Source: Candidatus Woesearchaeota archaeon (GTDB lineage Archaea; Nanobdellota; Nanobdellia; Woesearchaeales; JACPBV01). From it: DNA of 64,000 nucleotides. The translations under genes were made by a program, and so were the position numbers. How positions within the stretch are numbered: the stretch's first letter is position 1; every line of letters begins with the position of its first letter. This document shows positions 3,980-60,634 of this stretch, in pieces. The stretch spans positions 41,248 through 105,247 of the forward strand of contig JACPBV010000007.1 of the NCBI GenBank assembly GCA_016180135.1. Direction: 5' to 3'. The notes beneath the pieces were generated by a model that saw only the letters and a list, made by a program, of their open reading frames with translations, was not told where the DNA came from and searched no databases.

Positions 3980-4675
3980 ATGATTGAGCTCAAAAAACTA
4001 AGCTTCTCTTACGAGAGCAAAGAGATCCTGAAAGAGCTCTCTCTCAAGATTCAGGAAGGGGATTTCCTTGCAGTCATCGGCCATAACGGCAGCGGGAAAA
4101 CTACTTTTATCAAGCATATAAACGGGCTCCTGCTTCCTGAAACAGGGGAAGTTCTTGTTGATGGCTTATGCACAAAGGATGATGGGCCGGAGCTCAGGAA
4201 TAAAATTGCGATGGTGTTCCAGAATCCTGAGGATCAGCTTGTCTATTCAATCGTCGAAGAAGATGTTGCCTTTGGGCTGGAGAATGCCGGTGTCCAGCCG
4301 GCAGAAATGAAGAAGCGCGTTGCCAACATCCTCAAAGAGCTTAACATCCCGCAGCTTGCCAAAGAAAATGTCAACAGCCTTTCATTCGGGCAGAAACAGC
4401 TTGTTGCACTCGCAGGCGCTCTCGTGATAAAGCCAAAATACCTTATTTTAGACGAGCCCACAACCAACTTGGACCCTAAGAACCGGGCAAATATTTTAAG
4501 CATCCTTACAAAGATAAACAAGGATGGAATCAGTATCCTGCTTGTGACAAACAATCTTGCTGATGTGCAGTATGCCAAAAACGTCCTACTGCTGAAAAAA
4601 GGGGAAATTCTTTTTTATGGGTTGAAGGAGAAATTAACTTCCCAGATGATAGCGGAGGCAGGAATCAATGAATAA
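3980..4675 (+). CDS. ecfA: ECF transporter ATPase component (EcfA/CbiO-like ABC ATPase)
   Basis: Walker A GHNGSGKTT; Q-loop MVFQNPEDQL; ABC signature LSFGQKQLVALAGAL; Walker B LILDEPTTNLD. Confidence 0.85.
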   Translation: MIELKKLSFSYESKEILKELSLKIQEGDFLAVIGHNGSGKTTFIKHINGLLLPETGEVLVDGLCTKDDGPELRNKIAMVFQNPEDQLVYSIVEEDVAFGLENAGVQPAEMKKRVANILKELNIPQLAKENVNSLSFGQKQLVALAGALVIKPKYLILDEPTTNLDPKNRANILSILTKINKDGISILLVTNNLADVQYAKNVLLLKKGEILFYGLKEKLTSQMIAEAGINE

Positions 4676-5309
4676 CTTTGGGCAATACCGTTTTAAGGAC
4701 ACTCTCATCCATAGGATGGATGCGAGAAAAAAGCTCATCGCCATAGTTTTGTTGAGCCTGATTGTTTTTATAGTAAAGGCATATGGGCTGTTATTGTTTA
4801 CAGCGGGAGCGTTTTGGCTGACAGCAGCAGCTAAAGTCCCTCCTAAAAATATTGCGAGAAACATGAAGCCATTTTTGTTTTTCTCGGTCTTCCTTATCAC
4901 AATGTATCTGCTCTTCTCTCCGCAGGAGCTCGTGAAAGGCATTTTAGCAGTCTGGAGATTCTTATTATTGGCAGTTTTTTCGTCAGTCCTCCTTTACACC
5001 ACATCAATTGGCTCGATGATCAATGCAGTTGAATCATTGGCTCAACCGCTTCGCTCAGTCAATGTCAAGCCACGAAACGTCGCGCTTATGCTTGCGATGG
5101 CCATCAGGTTCATCCCTCTGCTGTTTGAAGAATCAGCATCGGTAAAGGATGCCATCATCGCAAGAGGCGGCAGTTTCAGGCAGCCAAAGATTATTGTCTT
5201 ATACACCAAAGCCATGCTGGGAAGGGCATTCCGGCGCGCAGACAGGGTTGCAGATGCGCTGGTATCGAGGAATTATACTGCCGAGGGGCATACAAAGTTT
5301 GCTGGATAA
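4668..5309 (+). CDS. ecfT: ECF transporter transmembrane T component (EcfT/CbiQ)
   Basis: Overlaps ecfA by 8 nt; multi-TM protein; AMAIRFIPLLFEESASVKDAIIARGG matches the conserved CbiQ/EcfT cytoplasmic coupling helix. Confidence 0.7.
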   Translation: MNNFGQYRFKDTLIHRMDARKKLIAIVLLSLIVFIVKAYGLLLFTAGAFWLTAAAKVPPKNIARNMKPFLFFSVFLITMYLLFSPQELVKGILAVWRFLLLAVFSSVLLYTTSIGSMINAVESLAQPLRSVNVKPRNVALMLAMAIRFIPLLFEESASVKDAIIARGGSFRQPKIIVLYTKAMLGRAFRRADRVADALVSRNYTAEGHTKFAG

Positions 5310-5312
5310 TTT

Positions 5313-5390
5313 GAATGCAACCATTCCATCCGGTCTTTGATCGTTCCCGAGCGAAGCGAGCGGAACTAAGAAAATCAACGGATTTTCTGT
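5313..5390. repeat. interspersed repeat family 'AATGCAACCATTCC...CCGAGCGAAGCGAG', copy 1
   Basis: AATGCAACCATTCCATCCGGTCTTTGATCGTTCCCGAGCGAAGCGAGCGGAACTAAGAAAA is near-identical to 56625-56700 and partly to 35875-35920; it lies directly after the ecfT stop; a 14-bp inverted partner GAATGGTTGCAT sits at 5421-5434. Confidence 0.7.
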
Positions 5391-5530
5391 TGGTGGTTGG
5401 AATCAGTTTTCTCTTCCAGAATGGTTGCATGCGTCAAGAACAACCAGATATAATAACCATTGTGGTTGTTCTTGGGCGTGCTCAGGATTTCAAACATTTC
5501 AAAATAGATGCTTGGAAATCCTGACATTTA

Positions 5531-5630
5531 AAAATCCGACCCGAGCGACCGAAGGGATAATCCAGCGTTTCGGTCTGCGGACGGAGGGATAATCCAGCGT
5601 TCCGGTTGCTTCGCAACGGAGGGCGGCCCC
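5531..5630. repeat. repeat family R1 (AAAYCCGACCMGAGCGRCCRAAGGGRTAATC ... CTGCGGACGGAGGG), with an internal imperfect tandem duplication of about 31 bp
   Basis: GGGATAATCCAGCGTT(T/C)CGGT occurs twice in tandem; the whole unit is homologous to 18943-19010; contains hairpins ACCGAA...TTCGGT. Confidence 0.65.
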
Positions 5631-5688
5631 CCGCGACGGACTCAACGTAGGCCCAGAAGCGTTTCTACCTAAGGAGGCTATACACCTA

Positions 5689-6360
5689 CTAATCATTTAA
5701 CCTTCTGATGGTCTCAATTAATTTGTTAAAAATCTTGTCGTCTATCTTTCCAAAAACGCCCTGGAGATTATCTTTATAACCCTGGCTGGTGGCATATTCT
5801 TTGAATTCCTTTAATTTATCACCAAGTCCATGGCTTTCCAGTTCTGTGTGTACCGTGTTGAGGTTAATGTCTCCGCCTAAAAGCATAAACACATCCCTAA
5901 AATCTGATTTCCTGCTTGCCGCCAGCTTCATGATAATGAGAGCCTCAGGGTTAGCTATCCTCACATCAATCCTGACCGGGTTCGCCTTGCCCCGTAATCT
6001 TCTTATTTTTGAATTTTCGAAAATCCATTCTGCTGAAAATCTCGAGTTTGTCTTTCTGTCAACAACATGCTTTATCAGAATGTCAAAGGGTACAGAATAA
6101 CCGCCTACTTTCTTGACAAGGCATGCAAAGTCTCCACAGTATGGAATATCTGGATCAGCTTCCTTTTTTTCATAGCCAGCCTGTTTCAGGGAACTTATCA
6201 CCTTCTTGGCATCTGCTTCATTCAGGACAACGATATCGCAGTCTACAGAAAATCTTGGCTGCGTATAGGCATTTACTGCATAGCCTCCAATAAGCACGAA
6301 ATTCAGCCCTTGCAATTTTTCCAACGTTGCCAAAATCTCCTTTTCCCGCAGCTCAAGCAT
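5689..6360 (-). CDS. nucleotidyltransferase, AbiEii-like (putative type IV toxin)
   Basis: N-terminal LNFVLIGGYAVNAYTQPRFSVDCDIVV fits the AbiEii/DUF1814 NTase motif (hhGG.A...RfS.D.D); overlaps the upstream gene by 1 nt. Confidence 0.5.
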   Translation of the reverse strand: MLELREKEILATLEKLQGLNFVLIGGYAVNAYTQPRFSVDCDIVVLNEADAKKVISSLKQAGYEKKEADPDIPYCGDFACLVKKVGGYSVPFDILIKHVVDRKTNSRFSAEWIFENSKIRRLRGKANPVRIDVRIANPEALIIMKLAASRKSDFRDVFMLLGGDINLNTVHTELESHGLGDKLKEFKEYATSQGYKDNLQGVFGKIDDKIFNKLIETIRRLND

Positions 6361-7001
6361 TACAGCGCCTCCCTGGCTTTTTGAACCAGTTCATTGCTAA
6401 CCTTTACCTTCAATTTGAATTTTTGCTTGACATACGCTAACGTGTATTCAAATAATGGGTTACCCTGGCAAAATCTGACGACTGTATCCAGGTCATCTAC
6501 CGGAAACCCATCATGCATAGTGTATGCTAATTTTTTCAACGGCTCTATGATGGCAAACTCCCCAATAAAGCTTCCTTCTCTGATGAAGAAGGGTATTCCT
6601 TCTTTTGAAAAAAAACTTTTCCAATATACAATATCCTCTTCTTTAACCTCGATGAAATAGGGGCTGCGCTCCCGGCTTCTTTGCAGGTAGGAAAAATCGG
6701 ACCATATTTCGGCAGCGCTCATCTTTGTGTAACAATACTCTTTTTTAGCATTCTTTAAGACTTCCGGGACTTTGAAATCAAATAATGACATGAATATCTC
6801 TTCAGGTTTGTAGCAGGCATAAGCCATTCTTGACTTCTTTTTTATCCATCCTGCATGTAATAAAACAGAAAAAATCTTTTTTCTCATTGCAGAGCTAACA
6901 GCCCAATTCAAGCAGTCCTGATTAAATTCTTCCTGAGAGCCGTATCTATTGTACATTAATCCATATGCCCTTAATGCATATTTTGGTAATTCCTGAGTCA
7001 T
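6360..7001 (-). CDS. putative AbiEi-like antitoxin/regulator (hypothetical)
   Basis: Immediately upstream of and overlapping the NTase gene; 213 aa; the N-terminal region could be a winged helix; assignment rests on genomic context only. Confidence 0.3.
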   Translation of the reverse strand: MTQELPKYALRAYGLMYNRYGSQEEFNQDCLNWAVSSAMRKKIFSVLLHAGWIKKKSRMAYACYKPEEIFMSLFDFKVPEVLKNAKKEYCYTKMSAAEIWSDFSYLQRSRERSPYFIEVKEEDIVYWKSFFSKEGIPFFIREGSFIGEFAIIEPLKKLAYTMHDGFPVDDLDTVVRFCQGNPLFEYTLAYVKQKFKLKVKVSNELVQKAREAL

Positions 7002-7160
7002 ATGGATCCCTATAAGGTAACTTATATTTAAATCTTGTGATTTTGGATACCCCTAAGGTAACTTTAATGTTGGCAAAAGGACAGAAAAGAAACAGAGGTA
7101 AGCCGCTGAGAAAAGCTAAGAAAAACGGCTGGTGGGGCAGGGATTGATTTATAGCAAACG

Positions 7161-7325: not shown

Positions 7326-7448
7326 GCAAACGACACAAGTATTTAGGCAAAATTATGCCGTTTGCTTACCCCTTAGAGGGGTACAAAAAACGTCTTTTCG
7401 TATTACGGACGGACCACAGCTGTATAATTATTTTTGTCCGTAAATATA
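7325..7448 (+). promoter_or_regulatory. conserved bipartite intergenic module, copy 1 (hairpin followed by T-tract, then palindrome-flanked AT-rich box)
   Basis: GCAAACGACAC...GCCGTTTGCT hairpin, then TATTACGGACGGACCACAGCTGTATAATTATTTTTGTCCGTAAATAT; homologous to 14249-14345 and 29341-29432; lies 60-80 nt upstream of the + strand gene at 7508. Confidence 0.45.
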
Positions 7449-7507
7449 ATTCTCAAATCACACCTTGACCATCAACTTTTAAATATACTCCTGCATTCTC
7501 TTCATCA

Positions 7508-8600: not shown

Positions 8601-9452
8601 CTAAACCTTGCTTTTAGCCATAAATGACAAGGGATATATTTTCTTGAAATGCGCAAAAGCTTCCTTAAGATTTTTCTGGCTGTCAAAAATTCCAAAGACG
8701 CTTGAGCCGCTCCCGGACAGGAGTGATTGCACAGCACCCTTCATTTGCAGGCCTTCCTTTATCTTTTTTAACTCGGGATATTTCGTGAAGGTGGCTGGCT
8801 CAAAGTCATTATGAAATTTTGGGCAGCTCAATTCCTGATGAGCATAAACTTCATCTTTGCTTGAGCCATCTTCTAACGCTTCACGGCATTTTTCTTTTCC
8901 GCAATATCTGTCAAATTCAGCATACGCTTCTTTTGTTGGAATGCTGAAGCCGGGGAAGACAATGAGAAAATCCATCTGAGGCAAAGATATCTTTTCAACA
9001 ATCTCGCCTTTGCCGCTGACGGCGCAGCTTCCCCCGACGATAAAGAACGGAACATCGGAGCCGATCGCCGCTGCAATCTTCAGCAGATCCTTTTCAGGAA
9101 GGTTGATGCCCCAAAGGGTGTTCAGGCCCATCAGGACTGCCGCTGCATCGCTTGAGCCACCGCCGAGGCCGGCTCCGATAGGAATGTTCTTCTTTAATGT
9201 TATCTGGGCGCCTTTGGGAATCTGGAACACTTCTTTCAGGAGCATCGCTGCACGATAGCAAAGATTATCTTCGTTCTCAAGCTCCTTAATGTTGCAGGTG
9301 AGGATGACTTTATCTTCAGCCAAAGGCTCGAGCGCAATCTCGTCAAAGAGAGTTACTTCCTGGAATATTGAGCTGATCTCGTGGAAGCCGTCATTTCTCC
9401 GCCGGAGGATATTCAGAGTAAGGTTTACTTTTGCGTGGGCTTTGAGCATCAT
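8601..9452 (-). CDS. ispE: GHMP kinase, 4-diphosphocytidyl-2-C-methyl-D-erythritol kinase (IspE)-like
   Basis: KVNLTLNILRRRNDGFHEISSIFQEVTLFDEIALE N-terminal IspE pattern; GHMP ATP-binding loop PIGAGLGGGSSDAAAVLMGLN. Confidence 0.7.
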   Translation of the reverse strand: MMLKAHAKVNLTLNILRRRNDGFHEISSIFQEVTLFDEIALEPLAEDKVILTCNIKELENEDNLCYRAAMLLKEVFQIPKGAQITLKKNIPIGAGLGGGSSDAAAVLMGLNTLWGINLPEKDLLKIAAAIGSDVPFFIVGGSCAVSGKGEIVEKISLPQMDFLIVFPGFSIPTKEAYAEFDRYCGKEKCREALEDGSSKDEVYAHQELSCPKFHNDFEPATFTKYPELKKIKEGLQMKGAVQSLLSGSGSSVFGIFDSQKNLKEAFAHFKKIYPLSFMAKSKV

Positions 9453-14425: not shown

Positions 14426-15598
14426 TCATTTTGCCTCTCTTGCATTTTCTCTTTTCTTCAGCAGCACAGCGCAAAAGCACTGGAGCCCTTCACCTTTCCC
14501 CCAGGCAGTCAATTCCTCGCCGGAAGTTGCTGCGATGCCGACCTGCTCTTCATTTAGCAGGCAGAGCCTTGCAATATTTGCTTTGATCCTGCCCTCATAG
14601 CTGAAAAGCCTCGGTTTCTTCCCTTCAACCATCACTGCGATATTGCTGACTGCAAAGCCTTTTTCTTTAGCCATGCCGAGGGCAACCTCAAGATAGACCC
14701 TGCTGGTCTTTATTCCCTGTCTGCAAAGGGGGTCTGCATAGAAGCCCAGGCTTTTGCCGCCTACAGCAGTGCTTATGGCGTTGAACAATGCATGGAGGAT
14801 GACATCACCGTCGGAATTTGCCTCCAAGCCATTTTCATTGGGAATTTCAACCCCTCCAAGGATCAGCCTTTTTGGATTGATGTCAAACTTGTGGGAATCC
14901 TGGCCGAAACCGATGCGGTCAGCCTGGATGACAAGCCTTGCATTCTCCATGTCAATCGGATTTGTTATCTTGAAATTTTCCTTTGAGCATTCGATAAGCT
15001 TTACCTTGGCTCCAATCTTCTCAATCAGCTCCATGTCGTCTGTGCCATAATATTGCTCGTTGTAGGCATGCACCATCGCCTGAGTCATCAGATCAAATCT
15101 TGCTGCCTGCGGTGTCTGCATATGCCATAAGCGGTTCCGGTCAAGGGTCTTTATGACAAATCCTTTATCATCTGCCTCTTTGACAGTGTCTGCTGCCCTG
15201 AATCCTGCCGCAGCAGCCCCGCTCTCCCCTGCTGCCATGATGACCCTTCCGATGAGATTATCGTCGATGAATGGGTTTGCGCCGTTATGGATAAGGACAA
15301 TATCCGAAGGCTCTGCCTTTATTGCTTTGATGCCTTCATAGGCGCTGTCCTGCCTGTTCTCGCCCCCCTTGACAAGCCCAGTTACCTTTGAAAGCTGTTT
15401 TTTGTCGATAAGATACTGTATTTCCCCAAGATTTTCCTCATTTGCGACAATGGTGATGGTGTCAATGAAACTGGAATCCTCAAAAGCCTGCAGGGTGTGC
15501 CCAAGAAGAGGCTCTTTGTTCAGGAGCATCAGCAGCTTATTGATGGGGGAGTGCATCCGTGTCCCTTTCCCTGCCGCAAGGATGATGGCGTGGTTCAT
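14426..15598 (-). CDS. ispDF: bifunctional IspD/IspF (MEP cytidylyltransferase / MEcPP synthase)
   Basis: N-terminal ILAAGKGTRM nucleotidyltransferase motif (IspD); C-terminal RIGFGQDSHKF...GGVEIPNENGLEANSDGDVILHALFNAISTAVG is the IspF metal-binding signature. Confidence 0.85.
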   Translation of the reverse strand: MNHAIILAAGKGTRMHSPINKLLMLLNKEPLLGHTLQAFEDSSFIDTITIVANEENLGEIQYLIDKKQLSKVTGLVKGGENRQDSAYEGIKAIKAEPSDIVLIHNGANPFIDDNLIGRVIMAAGESGAAAAGFRAADTVKEADDKGFVIKTLDRNRLWHMQTPQAARFDLMTQAMVHAYNEQYYGTDDMELIEKIGAKVKLIECSKENFKITNPIDMENARLVIQADRIGFGQDSHKFDINPKRLILGGVEIPNENGLEANSDGDVILHALFNAISTAVGGKSLGFYADPLCRQGIKTSRVYLEVALGMAKEKGFAVSNIAVMVEGKKPRLFSYEGRIKANIARLCLLNEEQVGIAATSGEELTAWGKGEGLQCFCAVLLKKRENAREAK

Positions 15599-19690: not shown

Positions 19691-20633
19691 GTTGGGGGAG
19701 ATAATTGTGCTAAACCATAATTATGTTACGGTAGTATCTCTTTGGCGGTTTATGGAGGTACCATGGCATACACCAAAGAGTTTAAACTTAGGATTATAAA
19801 ACATGTGAGAATGGGAATAACCCCCATTGAGCATATAGCGACGATACGGAAAATTCCAAAGCAAACCATCTACCGGTGGCTTAAATCTATAAGGCGATAC
19901 GGTGAATCTGGGCTTGAAAATGGATGTCCTGGTGCTAAACCGTTTCAAATTAATGTGACAGCCCAGCAGATGATACTTGTCCGCTGGAAAAAGCGCCCAA
20001 GAGGCTCAGCAAAGCTCTGGAGGGAGCTTAAAGAAGAAGGTTTTGGGATCTCTCAGCGACAGATTCAAAAAGCCTACAACCAACACGGTCTTAGAATGAA
20101 CAAGCGAGAAAGGCCCTCTCAGCTGAAATTCGTAAAATACGAATGGCCAAAGCCCAATATGCTCTGGCATACTGACTGGACAATCTGCCCTTTCACCGGT
20201 AACCACCTGATAGCATTCATTGACGACAATAGCCGATACATCGTCCATGCTGAGCTGTTCAACAGCCCAACTACAGAAAACACGCTCCTGGCTTTTCGGG
20301 CCGCAATAGCAAAGCATGGAAAGCCAGAAGCCATCCTTACGGACAATGGAACACAATTCACGCCAGCACGAGCATCAAAAGGCCCGTTTTCCCAATGGTG
20401 TGAAGAGCAGGGGATAAGACATATTATTGGGCGAGTCAATCACCCCCAAACGAATGGAAAAATAGAAAGATGGTTTGGGACGTACAAACAGGAGAAAAAA
20501 CAAGAAGAGCCGCTTGATTCGTTCGTTAAGTACTATAATGACGAACGCTTACATCAGGGAATTAACTATAAAGTACCATCTGAGAGGTACAAAAGTAACA
20601 TTAATGCGGTTTAGTAGAGTTGGGGGAGATAAT
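19691..20633 (+). mobile_element. IS481-family insertion sequence with 15-bp flanking direct repeats GTTGGGGGAGATAAT
   Basis: Direct repeats at 19691-19705 and 20619-20633; imperfect terminal inverted repeats TGTGCTAAACCATAATTATGTT and AACATTAATGCGGTTTAGTAGAG; single transposase ORF inside. Confidence 0.7.
19763..20614 (+). CDS. IS481-family DDE transposase (HTH plus rve integrase core)
   Basis: GGAGGT SD upstream of ATG at 19763; HTDWT...FIDDNSRY...LTDNGTQF...NHPQTNGKIERWFGTYK is a DDE (D,D,35E) integrase core; the ORF-track start at 19742 is a TTG. Confidence 0.8.
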   Translation: MAYTKEFKLRIIKHVRMGITPIEHIATIRKIPKQTIYRWLKSIRRYGESGLENGCPGAKPFQINVTAQQMILVRWKKRPRGSAKLWRELKEEGFGISQRQIQKAYNQHGLRMNKRERPSQLKFVKYEWPKPNMLWHTDWTICPFTGNHLIAFIDDNSRYIVHAELFNSPTTENTLLAFRAAIAKHGKPEAILTDNGTQFTPARASKGPFSQWCEEQGIRHIIGRVNHPQTNGKIERWFGTYKQEKKQEEPLDSFVKYYNDERLHQGINYKVPSERYKSNINAV

Positions 20634-29313: not shown

Positions 29314-29340
29314 CCGGGATAAGCCTATCTTGCTGCCAAT

Positions 29341-29432
29341 ATAGCAAAAGACACGAACATTTAGACAATAAACATGTCTTTTGCTATTACGAACGGACAA
29401 CTACTGTTCAATTATTTTTGTCCGTAAGTATA
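29341..29432 (+). promoter_or_regulatory. conserved bipartite intergenic module, copy 3 (atpK-atpE intergenic)
   Basis: ATAGCAAAAGACAC...GTCTTTTGCT hairpin, then ATTACGAACGGACAACTACTGTTCAATTATTTTTGTCCGTAAGTAT; ends about 22 nt upstream of the atpE ATG. Confidence 0.45.
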
Positions 29433-29453
29433 GTCCATATTATTGGGGAGCCA

Positions 29454-55571: not shown

Positions 55572-55778
55572 ATGAGGCAGGTTATTTTGTTTAAAGGTGA
55601 AGATGGATTTTGGGTAGCTGAATGCCCAAGCCTGCCTGGCTGTATTTCTCAGGGGAAGACTAAAGAAGATGCAATCAACAATATCAAAGAGGCTATTGAT
55701 GGGTATATTGAATCTCTGAAAGAAGATAATCTTCCTATACCTCAGGAGAAGTTTGAAGCAATTGCATTGGTTGTATAG
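55572..55778 (+). CDS. hicB: HicB-family antitoxin (UPF0150)
   Basis: DGFWVAECPSLPGCISQGKTKEDAINNIKEAIDGYIE. Confidence 0.6.
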   Translation: MRQVILFKGEDGFWVAECPSLPGCISQGKTKEDAINNIKEAIDGYIESLKEDNLPIPQEKFEAIALVV

Positions 55779-56000
55779 ATGGATGGTCTTCCAATTATTT
55801 CCGGAAAAGAAGCAATAAGAGCGCTGTCTAAATCAGGTTTTTATCTAAAAAGGCAGAAAGGCAGCCACATTATACTGAGAAAAGATATGCCTTTTGCCCA
55901 AGTGACCGTCCCAAATCATGATACCCTTGACAGAGGCACCTTAAGGTCAATCATCAAACAAGCAGGACTAAGTGTTGAAGAGTTTAATGATCTGTTATAA
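55779..56000 (+). CDS. hicA: HicA-family mRNA interferase toxin
   Basis: ISGKEAIRALSKSGFYLKRQKGSHIILRKD...VTVPNHDTLDRGTLRSIIKQAGL; starts at the hicB stop. Confidence 0.65.
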   Translation: MDGLPIISGKEAIRALSKSGFYLKRQKGSHIILRKDMPFAQVTVPNHDTLDRGTLRSIIKQAGLSVEEFNDLL

Positions 56001-56723: not shown

Positions 56724-57428
56724 TTAATGATGCTCCCCCCCATGGCTGCCTTCTGCTTTTCCTTCTCCACCAGAACTGAAGACATACGAAACGAGAGTCA
56801 CAATGATCAGGACAAAGATGATGACTCCCTGGTAAGTGGGATCGGTGAGCCAGTCCGGCAGCTCCCGGAACCAGCCTCTTTCTGTCCCGAAGACAAACAG
56901 CACAATGAGGAATGCGATGATAGTGATTGCACCCTGGACAAAAGTCTCCATCGTAGAGCCTGAGGTGAAGAAATTGATGATGAGGAGGCTGATAAGGATG
57001 CCTATCATCAAAGGAGAAAGGCTGGGATAAGCAGACAATGCATAGACTGTTGCTGCTGTAAGGACTACACCTCCGGTGGCATACATCGGCTTGTTCTCAA
57101 CCTGGCCGCCAAGGAGCCCGATGATGAGCAGAGCGCCTATCGCTGCGACTGCCACAATAGAGATGCTGGGGATTGAATCATTGATGATCTGAACCGGATC
57201 CATATTCTCAGGATACAGGCCGGTGACGTGGGGGATGACGACAAAAAGCCCCATGACTAGTGCAACGGTGAGGTTAAGCTTGTCTTTACCGTCGCCAAAA
57301 ACCTTGACTCTTTGGAGCGCAGCAAAGATGACGACGAAAACAAGAAGAAAAGGCAGCATGACGTCCCTCAGCCCCCATCCATCAAGGATCCTGATGAACT
57401 CTTCAAGGTTATATGCCCGTGATGCCAT
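56724..57428 (-). CDS. polytopic membrane protein (hypothetical)
   Basis: About 7 predicted TM helices; no recognised family. Confidence 0.4.
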   Translation of the reverse strand: MASRAYNLEEFIRILDGWGLRDVMLPFLLVFVVIFAALQRVKVFGDGKDKLNLTVALVMGLFVVIPHVTGLYPENMDPVQIINDSIPSISIVAVAAIGALLIIGLLGGQVENKPMYATGGVVLTAATVYALSAYPSLSPLMIGILISLLIINFFTSGSTMETFVQGAITIIAFLIVLFVFGTERGWFRELPDWLTDPTYQGVIIFVLIIVTLVSYVFSSGGEGKAEGSHGGEHH

Positions 57429-57574
57429 AACACCTTCTGCAGGAAATGGGTTTAAATACTTTACTTCTTTTGTAAGTTAACGATTGCATAATACGATAAT
57501 CTAGAAACAATGTTTATCTCTCAAACCCCTATACTAGAAACCATCATCACTTATTAAACAATTACTCATTAAAC

Positions 57575-57723
57575 GTATGTATTAAGCTCCGGCAAGAGCG
57601 GCTCTGCCATCCTAAGGTCAAAACTCATCTGCCCAACTGAATCGCGCTCGTCGTGGGGGGATGCCCCCTCGGTCAAGAGTTTTGAAGATGGCAGAGCCGC
57701 TCCGAGAGGAGCTTAATACATAC
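57575..57723. mobile_element. MITE (149 bp) with 8-bp target-site duplication CATTAAAC and imperfect terminal inverted repeats of about 48 bp
   Basis: CATTAAAC at 57567-57574 and 57724-57731; ends GTATGTATTAAGCTCCGGCAAGAGCGGCTCTGCCATC... and ...GATGGCAGAGCCGCTCCGAGAGGAGCTTAATACATAC; internal GGGGGATGCCCCC hairpin. Confidence 0.6.
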
Positions 57724-57733
57724 CATTAAACAA

Positions 57734-57949
57734 TCACTTCTTAAACCTATACAGATACACAATCCTTCTTCCTGCAGGCTCAACGACCTGATAAGCCCTC
57801 TTGAACAGGACAATGCCGGCTTTGCGCAGCCTTTTCAGGTTTCCGACGACTGTGTTGAAAGAAGCATCCAGCAATTTTGCGATGTCACGGGCATTGAACC
57901 ATTTATCCTTGTATTTCTTGAGTAAGTCGTAAACGTCCTGTTGTGACAT
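57734..57949 (-). CDS. small winged-helix DNA-binding protein
   Basis: 71 aa; ARDIAKLLDASFNTVVGNLKRLRKAGIV is a helix-turn-helix; basic. Confidence 0.4.
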   Translation of the reverse strand: MSQQDVYDLLKKYKDKWFNARDIAKLLDASFNTVVGNLKRLRKAGIVLFKRAYQVVEPAGRRIVYLYRFKK

Positions 57950-58400
57950 AGTAACAGGTAAAGAATGGGCTGAGTTTAAAAACGTTACTGATTTTGGAAG
58001 GAAATTGAGAAAGTTAGGGTTGTTTTTCTATTTCCTGATGACCGCAGAATTGGGGCGTTATTTTTCCTGTATACCGCTCAAGCTTTTTGTTTCTGCCGCC
58101 GGAAGCTCACATCCCCGCTTCCTTTTTGAGAGCGTCGGAATTAACTGCCTTTCCCTCCCTTGAACACGACTTTTGGGTATTGCTGCTGTTCCCGTTTCCA
58201 GCGAGTTACTAATACATGATGGAAATTATCCTCCTTGCAGACTTCATTCATTCGACTCTGTTCGATTTGCTGGAGAATCTCAAGCTTAAAATTCCTATCA
58301 AATGTTCCTCTTTTTTTCATGGAATTCCTCCTTAAATTACCAGACTTCTAAAACTTAACTATTTGAGAACTTTCAGGGTGCAGCCCATAATGTTATTTTA

Positions 58401-59458: not shown

Positions 59459-60634
59459 TCAAATCCCCGCTTCCTTTTTGAGAGTGTCTGACTTGTATGT
59501 ATTCTCCCACGTGAAGTCAGGGTCATCCCTACCGAAATGGCCGTATGCTGCTGTCTTGAGGTAAATTGGCCTTCTTAATTTAAGATGCTCGATGATTGCC
59601 CTTGGGCGAAGGTCAAAATGCTTTTCAACAAGCGCAAGAATTTTTTCATCCGGGATTTTTCCGGTGCCGAAGGTTTCGACATTCAGTGAAGTTGGCTTTG
59701 CGACGCCGATAGAATAGCTGATCTGGACTTCGCACTTATCCGCTAAGCCTGCTGCAACAATATTTTTTGCGACATATCTTGCCATATAAGCCCCTGAGCG
59801 GTCCACTTTTGACGGGTCCTTGCCGCTAAAAGCACCTCCACCATGCCTCCCTACTCCGCCATAAGTATCAACAATTATTTTTCTTCCGGTCACGCCGGTA
59901 TCGCCTTCAGGGCCGCCGATGACGAACCTTCCTGTTGCGTTGATGTGGATCTTTGTTTCAGAATCCATCATACTGCCGCAGACCGGCTTGATGACATGCT
60001 CAATGATGTCCTGCCGGAGATGGTCTTCGTGGACCTCTTCAGTATGCTGCTGGGCGATGACTATTGCAGTAATCTTGTCAGGCTTACCGTCAAGATATCT
60101 TACAGACACCTGCGATTTTCCGTCGGGGCCTAAACATTTAATAATACCTTTCTTTCTGACTTCAGCCAGCCTTCGTGTGAGCTTATGCGCTGTGATGATA
60201 GGAAAGGGCATCAATTCCGGAGTTTCATTGGTCGCATAGCCATACATCATCCCCTGATCGCCTGCGCCCTGGTCCTTGTTGGCGTCGGGATTTTCGTTGA
60301 CACCCATCGCAATGTCCGGGCTCTGCCCATGGATGCTCACCCAGACTCCTGCATCTTCGCAGTCAATGCCGTATCTTGGGTCAGTGTAGCCGATGCCTTT
60401 CAGGGTTTTCCTGACGATTGACTGGATATCTGCAAAGCCTTTCGTGGTGACTTCGCCTGCAACATGCACACTGCCCGTTGTTGTCAGCGTTTCAATGGCA
60501 ACACGGGAATAAGGGTCCTGTGAGAATAAGCTGTCAAGGATTGCATCGCTGACCTGATCGCAGATCTTGTCCGGATGCCCCTCGGTGACGCTTTCTGAGG
60601 TTACGTAATGGATTTTTTTTGTTTGTTGAGCCAT
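59459..60634 (-). CDS. metK: S-adenosylmethionine synthetase, bacterial/eukaryal type
   Basis: [16 protein letters not shown]; [21 protein letters not shown]; [34 protein letters not shown]; collinear with E. coli MetK, not the archaeal MAT type. Confidence 0.9.

Follow-up and report, generated by a model that had tools for sequence, protein, structure and literature searches.

The 149-bp element at positions 57575-57723 of the window, by which we mean the whole 64-kb stretch of DNA analysed here, is very probably a non-autonomous DNA transposon (MITE). It would belong to a DPANN family of the Woesearchaeota/Nanoarchaeota type, whose ends copy the left end of IS66-family elements. The element has several of the features that define a MITE: it is small and non-coding, carries terminal inverted repeats (TIRs), belongs to a family with 8-bp duplications, and shows presence/absence polymorphism. 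As far as the compared sequences indicate, its ends and the length of its duplication are those of ISBst12-like IS66 elements. The sequence-only reading of this region had already proposed a MITE, and this is supported by sibling copies with their own 8-bp duplications, by the type of parent found, and by a relative that is free of the element.

Anatomy of the element

Read directly from the sequence of the window, the order across 57567-57731 is CATTAAAC, then GTATGTATTAAGCTCC through to GGAGCTTAATACATAC, and then CATTAAAC again (Table 1). The 149-bp hairpin with an 8-bp target duplication that had been described is thus present, with CATTAAAC perfect on both sides. The terminal 16-mer GTATGTATTAAGCTCC is exact at both ends (16/16), and no other match to it occurs in the 64-kb window with up to three mismatches allowed. 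Further inside, a second stem of 16/16 is formed by 57596-57611 (GAGCGGCTCTGCCATC) and 57687-57702, and a third of 9/9 by 57618-57626 (TCAAAACTC) and 57677-57685. Both 16-bp stems were therefore described correctly, and the third is 9 bp instead of 8 bp. Similarly, the G/C mini-hairpin is found where it was expected, inside a central loop that measures 50 nt (57627-57676) and not 45 nt. The arms, previously given as 48-bp imperfect TIRs, are 52 nt (left) and 47 nt (right) long, and are 86% complementary over 37 nt.

Table 1. Features of the element, its flanks and its relic in the window
Feature	Positions	Strand	Basis or remark
Target-site duplication, left copy CATTAAAC	57567-57574	.	Identical to 57724-57731
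Very probable MITE, 149 bp, non-coding	57575-57723	+	Sequence, folding, nhmmer family profile
Left terminal inverted repeat GTATGTATTAAGCTCC, presumed transposase recognition end	57575-57590	+	16/16 to IS66-family left ends
Left subterminal arm: stem GAGCGGCTCTGCCATC, CCTAAGG bulge, 9-nt stem TCAAAACTC	57596-57626	+	Stem pairing
Core mini-hairpin GGGGGG-ATG-CCCCC (G6/C5)	57655-57668	+	Inside family-wide motif CGTCG[T/C]GGGGG
Right subterminal arm	57677-57702	+	Pairs with 57596-57626
Right terminal inverted repeat	57708-57723	-	Exact reverse complement of left repeat
Target-site duplication, right copy CATTAAAC	57724-57731	.	Identical to 57567-57574
71-aa HTH gene (wHTH)	57734-57949	-	Pfam HTH_11 E=1.3e-4, below gathering score
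234-aa membrane-like gene	56724-57428	-	Start codon 146 nt downstream of MITE
Degenerate relic of second family member	5585-5675 (profile match; region 5530-5690)	-	nhmmer E=0.0019

On both strands, the element is predicted to fold very stably. As RNA, the element folds at -81.9 kcal/mol, compared with -44.1 +/- 3.8 kcal/mol for shuffled sequences (z=-10.0; 0 of 200 shuffles), and as DNA at -49.7 kcal/mol (z=-11.8). Its coding capacity is negligible, the longest overlapping open reading frames on both strands being 22-46 aa, and no transposase gene is present in it.

Sibling copies in DPANN genomes

A scan for the 16-mer terminus across 185,579 species-representative genomes returned 64 loci. 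More than half of these (34 of 64) are non-archaeal, each with a single 16-mer and no similarity to the MITE past it, except for a 25-nt stretch in one locus (L021; E=3e-4). We rejected the non-archaeal loci as family members; by our own arithmetic, about 280 chance matches are expected in 596 Gb. Three matches in viral contigs were also attributed to chance, as they all represent the same unrelated phage sequence, with the 16-mer only and no second end. The remaining loci belong to a few DPANN MAGs, where they are often located at contig ends and often form facing pairs 150-280 bp apart. At two loci (L043 and L027), the terminus adjoins ordinary genes, with no transposase.

Close relatives detected by blastn with the 149-bp query are confined to two Woesearchaeota MAGs from groundwater, JACPBU01 with at least seven loci (L003, L029, L037, L044, L045, L052 and L053) and JACPII01 with three (L010, L048 and L051). 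The arms of these siblings are 92-98% identical to those of the window copy, their interiors vary in length, and their sites are unrelated. L045 and L053 are closest to the window copy, with 92-98% identity in the left arm (57575-57626). On the right, the identity is 95.7% over 57677-57723 (L048, L051, L053) and 97.2% over 57688-57723 (L029, L044, L045, L052). A family profile built from eight copies, the window copy among them, recovers the siblings with nhmmer at E-values from 1e-33 to 1e-58, and the window copy, itself part of the profile, at E=2.7e-44. An arm-pattern scan of JGI metagenomes retrieved four contigs from a single sample, all broken at the MITE, and no parent IS with extended arm similarity. 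The search for siblings that the sequence-only reading had suggested therefore yielded at least ten loci at unrelated sites in JACPBU01 and JACPII01, plus the four JGI contigs. A single-copy element with covariation across species, which had been named as the sign of an RNA gene, is not what was found.

Metagenomic assemblies of the window region itself point in a similar direction. At the 234-aa gene, two Logan contigs (L067 and L068) show no difference from the window, and they break 26 nt into the MITE; the short contigs identical to the window derive from runs SRR4343428 and SRR4343430. Because repeats usually break short-read assemblies, a break inside the element hints at more copies in the source genome. 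The 64-kb window holds one intact copy and one relic. The relic has no terminal repeats. It contains two 32-nt tandem units (5545-5606) as well as the core motif CCGTCGCGGGGGGCCGCCC, and aligns at 89% with the interior of the L053 copy. Overall, the MITE copies are mostly intergenic, and many are found within tens of nucleotides of a gene end.

The family is modular, with conserved arms, a G6/C5 core hairpin and a variable number of tandem units of about 33 nt. Its members range from 149 to 332 bp, largely due to these units, of which L053, for instance, has three. No complete member shorter than the window copy was seen, and this copy is devoid of tandem units. The two arms are conserved yet consistently distinct, the 5' arm reading ...GGCAAGAGCGGCTCTGCCATCCTAAGGTCAAAACTC and the reverse complement of the 3' arm ...CCTCGGAGCGGCTCTGCCATCTTCAAAACTC. 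The core motif CGTCG[T/C]GGGGG is found in the aligned copies, in a diverged variant in L048, and in the window relic near 5630. In the diverged variant (L048, 4362-4532), GAGCGGCTCTGCCATC/GATGGCAGAGCCGCTC are replaced by GTGGCATTGTCATC/GACGGCAATGCCAC, and the arms are still complementary. Such two-sided changes fit symmetric protein-binding sites as well as selection for a hairpin, and do not discriminate between them. L048 also harbors two family members only 8 nt apart at a contig end, at 4362-4532 and 4541-4680.

Target duplications and the insertion site

For each complete element, we compared the 8 nt on either side. Besides the window copy, eight complete elements, from the siblings and from other subfamilies, have a perfect 8-bp duplication: L010 (GTTTGCAG), L014 (GGAACTTC), L017 (GAAAAATC), L029 (GAAAACGA), L045 (AAAGGAAC), L047 (AATTCAAT), L049 (GTTTTTTT) and L053 (GGATAAAA). 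Another two (L028 and L037) match at 7 of 8 positions, and three (L048, L051 and L058) have a duplication only after one end is shifted by 1-2 nt. In L018 and L031, no duplication was found in the flanking 8 nt. Duplications of the same length and of different sequence, at unrelated loci, are the expected outcome of transposition.

The edge of the element lies 10 nt downstream of the stop codon of the small wHTH gene, as had been noted and as the coordinates directly confirm, and the insertion point is 2 nt past this stop. At this site, CATTAAAC is part of a longer flank similarity (26 nt, 85%), because the target already was a triplicated 15-nt unit before the insertion. The three tandem units, GTTTAAGAAGTGATT, GTTTAATGAGTAATT and GTTTAATAAGTGATG on the minus strand, are copies of the last codons and the stop of the HTH gene. 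They cover 57541-57574 plus 57724-57750, and the MITE is located within the second of them. Reading CATTAAAC as an 8-bp duplication is still supported, since other copies show 8-bp duplications. The perfect duplication and the perfect termini further suggest that the insertion was fairly recent.

A comparison with sites lacking the element was possible, because two further metagenome contigs, L065 and L066, encode the same 71-aa protein, with about 90% DNA identity. In L066, the sequence downstream of the HTH gene is unrelated to the window. In L065, the stop codon is directly followed by a homologue of window 57518-57546, which is on the far side of the MITE; the local alignment covers 33 of 42 positions and starts inside the last codons of the HTH gene. 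L065 thus lacks the MITE and is homologous to the window on both sides. An empty site, proposed earlier as a check, is therefore present in a relative with an identical wHTH protein, although not in a base-exact form, having one 15-nt unit compared with three in the window.

The many copies, the duplications and the empty site are all relevant for a different reading, in which the element would be an immobile gene for a structured non-coding RNA, with helices under selection for RNA structure. We consider it very unlikely. In its favor are the very stable predicted structure, the conserved core motif, and the arms of L048 4362-4532, complementary despite changes on both sides, yet such matched changes are equally expected of transposon ends. 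An RNA gene is difficult to reconcile with many copies at unrelated loci and an 8-bp duplication at each, with a length range of 149-332 bp, with the absence of the MITE from the orthologous site in L065, and with termini identical to those of IS elements (see below). Furthermore, Rfam 15 gave 0 matches at the gathering score in the whole window, and 0 even at E<=1 in 57400-57900. A non-mobile RNA gene has thus already been largely refuted.

Relation to IS66-family elements

A transposase-bearing parent had been suggested for the MITE, and our search led to an IS66-family type with the same 16-nt end. In L032, from a Nanoarchaeota MAG, a 1583-bp element (1070-2652) matches the MITE terminus at 16/16 positions on its left end and 15/16 on its right end. 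It encodes a 52-aa DUF2080 protein (E=1.8e-12), whose ORF overlaps that of a 442-aa DDE_Tnp_IS66 transposase (E=4e-40). The left end is likewise 16/16 in L078-L087, and 14-15/16 in L077. In these loci, a 44-46-aa DUF2080 ORF overlaps the start of the transposase gene and was called in 9 of 11. Overall, the IS66-family elements are about 1.56-1.58 kb long, with transposases of 438-444 aa, matching PF03050 at E=4e-40 and 3e-38, and DUF2080 ORFs of 46-52 aa.

The L032 transposase has 655 relatives at E<=1e-20 in the database search, and those with names carry the annotation 'IS66 family transposase', from either Nanoarchaeota or Candidatus Woesearchaeota archaeon. One of the transposases, P0093, is 59% identical to that of L032 and occurs on at least 24 contigs. 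Among ten P0093 loci that were read, the left end GTATGTATTAAGCTCCCTCTA is found in all ten and the right end GTACGTATTAAGCTTAGAG in eight; a DUF2080 ORF was called in 8 of 10, and elements with both ends measure 1559 bp. The presence of such elements in Woesearchaeota is also indicated by two contig-end fragments with an extended P0093-type IS end in MAG UBA9638 (L036 and L042), and by an IS copy on JACPJP01 (P0053) with the end GTATGAATTAAGCTC.

The absence of an autonomous partner from the window, as previously stated, was borne out by tblastn, which found no IS66 transposase below E=0.5 in the 64 kb. Past about 20 nt, the arms and interior of the MITE have no likeness to any IS retrieved, and no direct parent of the subfamily was found among them. 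Because the likeness is confined to the ends, the MITE shares its ends with these elements and is not a simple internal-deletion derivative of them. The full-length IS copies retrieved have no clean target duplications. Several of the assembled copies (L078-L087 and L077) share the right flank and differ in the left, which suggests either chimeric assembly or recombination between copies. Since the shared flanks may reflect chimeric assembly, we did not count the missing duplications against the model.

The TIR was also described as unrelated to the ends of the IS481-type element of the window, and this agrees with our results, as the rve-type transposase at 19742-20614 is of another kind and no further terminus is found. 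A derivation from another transposon family is extremely unlikely, be it an IS200/IS605-type palindrome or a relative of the rve (IS481/IS3-type) elements of the window. The rve-type transposase gene and the HTH_Tnp_1 fragment 410 nt away (58141-58320) would be in line with the latter. Against it, the window has no further terminus within three mismatches, and the terminus matches IS66-family elements exactly. Elements of the IS200/IS605 type are not known to have terminal inverted repeats or target duplications, and the MITE has both.

Our preferred reading of a MITE with IS66-type ends implies the following course of events. An IS66-type DDE transposase (with DUF2080, ISBst12-like), supplied by a copy at another place in the genome or in the population, would bind both GTATGTATTAAGCTCC ends. 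Staggered cuts 8 bp apart in the AT-rich spacer, 2 nt beyond the HTH stop codon, would lead to the insertion, and gap repair would then create the CATTAAAC duplication. From the shared ends, we infer that a transposase of this type may mobilise the MITE in trans.

Possible effects on neighbouring genes

The element is intergenic and, judging from the gene coordinates, disrupts neither of its neighbours. A TATA-like TTTAAA of the 234-aa gene, at about 57451-57456, is outside the MITE, so that no gene is obviously disturbed.

It is conceivable, and in our opinion improbable, that the MITE has been co-opted locally. The predicted hairpin might then act as a terminator of the HTH mRNA, as a stabiliser of its 3' end, as a processing site, or as an insulator of the membrane-protein gene. 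Such a role would suit a position starting 10 nt past the HTH stop codon, a fold that is very stable on both strands (-82 kcal/mol), and the many other copies near gene ends. On the other hand, a scan for bacterial-type terminators found 0 hairpin-plus-T-run sites in 57300-58100, and the longest T run nearby on the sense strand is 4 nt. Archaeal termination is known to rely on oligo-T tracts, not on hairpins, and in an archaeal host a hairpin is not a known termination signal. Moreover, relatives with an identical HTH protein lack the MITE. The idea that the element supplies the wHTH gene with a terminator-like stem is therefore unsupported: no T-tract follows the stem, the host is archaeal, and the relatives do without it.

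Comparison with known systems

The closest parallel to the archaeal IS elements is the ISBst12 group of IS66. One of its members, ISDge4 of Deinococcus geothermalis, has a transposase of about 449 aa, an 8-bp direct repeat, and the ends GTGACTACTCAGCA/GTAACTGCTCAGCA (PMC12898284). Like ISBst12 and ISDge4, the archaeal elements have one DDE_Tnp_IS66 transposase and imperfect ends starting with GTA, and, unlike classic IS66, they lack the accessory TnpA/TnpB ORFs. The MITEs resemble ISDge4 in making 8-bp duplications as well. In contrast to the ISBst12 group, the archaeal elements have an additional DUF2080 ORF, which is small, lies upstream of the transposase and overlaps it. The window MITE differs further, as it has no transposase and its likeness to the IS is limited to the first 16-20 nt.

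A census published in Nucleic Acids Research in 2024 gives 105 MITEs per Mb for a Woesearchaea genome, one of the highest densities it lists for archaea, and IS66 has 0 occurrences in its main text (PMC11602168). Similar to other prokaryotic MITEs, including the catalogued Woesearchaea ones, the elements described here are small, non-coding, mostly intergenic and multi-copy, with TIRs and duplications. MITE-rich Woesearchaea have already been reported, and the hairpin is a real but ordinary MITE. By itself, it opens no new biological question.

Several practical consequences follow for work on these genomes. For annotation, masking the hairpin as a mobile repeat is appropriate, and calling it an RNA gene or a terminator is not. 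The MITE explains contig breaks in DPANN assemblies, and the Woesearchaeota family is now linked to its likely driver, the DUF2080 plus IS66-type transposase. The GTATGTATTAAGCTCC end together with the 8-bp duplication rule is useful for mobile-element censuses in DPANN. Furthermore, strains within groundwater populations could be told apart by the presence or absence of copies.

The architecture of the family is reminiscent of the BOX elements of Streptococcus pneumoniae and the Correia elements of Neisseria. These are modular, their outer modules form a long hairpin, and their short inner units are tandemly repeated in variable numbers; in bacteria, they are known to have regulatory and RNA-level effects. 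The MITE family is comparably modular, with inner units of about 33 nt and sizes of 149-332 bp. It differs in having no sequence relation to BOX or Correia and a host from another domain, and the window copy has no tandem units. The arms of about 50 nt, complementary despite changes on both sides, the G-rich core hairpin present in all variants and the variable array of about 33-nt units raise the possibility of a domesticated, BOX-like module of Woesearchaeales, regulatory or RNA-producing. Spread by the DUF2080-IS66 transposase, such a module might act on the promoters or 3' ends of genes nearby, a scenario that we regard as improbable. The host genomes of the family are described as very compact symbiont genomes.

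Taxonomic affiliation and other features of the window

The large ORFs of the window are archaeal, among them an archaeal-type oligosaccharyl transferase, a V-type ATPase subunit I and a class-I ProRS. The ProRS shows 100% identity to a protein that NCBI lists under 'Candidatus Woesearchaeota archaeon', followed among the named hits by homologues from Woesearchaeota and Nanoarchaeota, and the window can thus be assigned to a DPANN archaeon.

Some terminus loci carry a different taxon label. L017 (CAYWNO010000060.1), labelled 'uncultured Methanosarcinales archaeon', contains a 77-bp mini-element (6940-7016) that shares the terminus and is flanked by the duplication GAAAAATC, and the loci of CAZIEE01 (L009, L018, L022 and L054) are under the same label. 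The label of L017 is doubtful, and probably wrong, because all named homologues of the primase beside the element (5154-6686) are from Woesearchaeota or Nanoarchaeota. Sharing of the terminus between DPANN and Methanosarcinales, as a host-symbiont transfer, was rejected for L017, the one contig tested, on the basis of these primase homologues.

Other mobile-element genes in the window are an intact 290-aa rve-type transposase (HTH_28 plus rve) at 19742-20614 (+), and a 59-aa HTH_Tnp_1 fragment, a remnant of an IS3-type OrfA, at 58141-58320 (-), 410 nt from the MITE. A separate intergenic element of 70-90 nt occurs twice in the window (7383-7451 and 29340-29434) and once in L045 (59-153), in a Woesearchaeota MAG, at 83-85% identity. 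It reads TTTAGACAA...TATTACGAACGGAC...TGTATAATTATTTTTGTCCGTAAGTATAGT, with a small GGAC/GTCC inverted repeat; candidate explanations are a promoter block, a small RNA and a further repeat family.

Three genes in the window look bacterial (14426-15598, 8601-9452 and 59459-60634, all on the minus strand). The set comprises an IspD-IspF fusion, a GHMP kinase and, judged by eye, a MetK with a bacterial-type N-terminus. The IspD-IspF fusion and the GHMP kinase are suggestive of the MEP pathway, and the genes may represent bacterial metabolism acquired by a DPANN lineage. Finally, a pair consisting of a HicB-like antitoxin and a HicA toxin (55572-56000, +) is located between an MTA phosphorylase-like gene and a phosphoribosyltransferase gene, and is likewise conserved on a contig of another run (SRR12113383).
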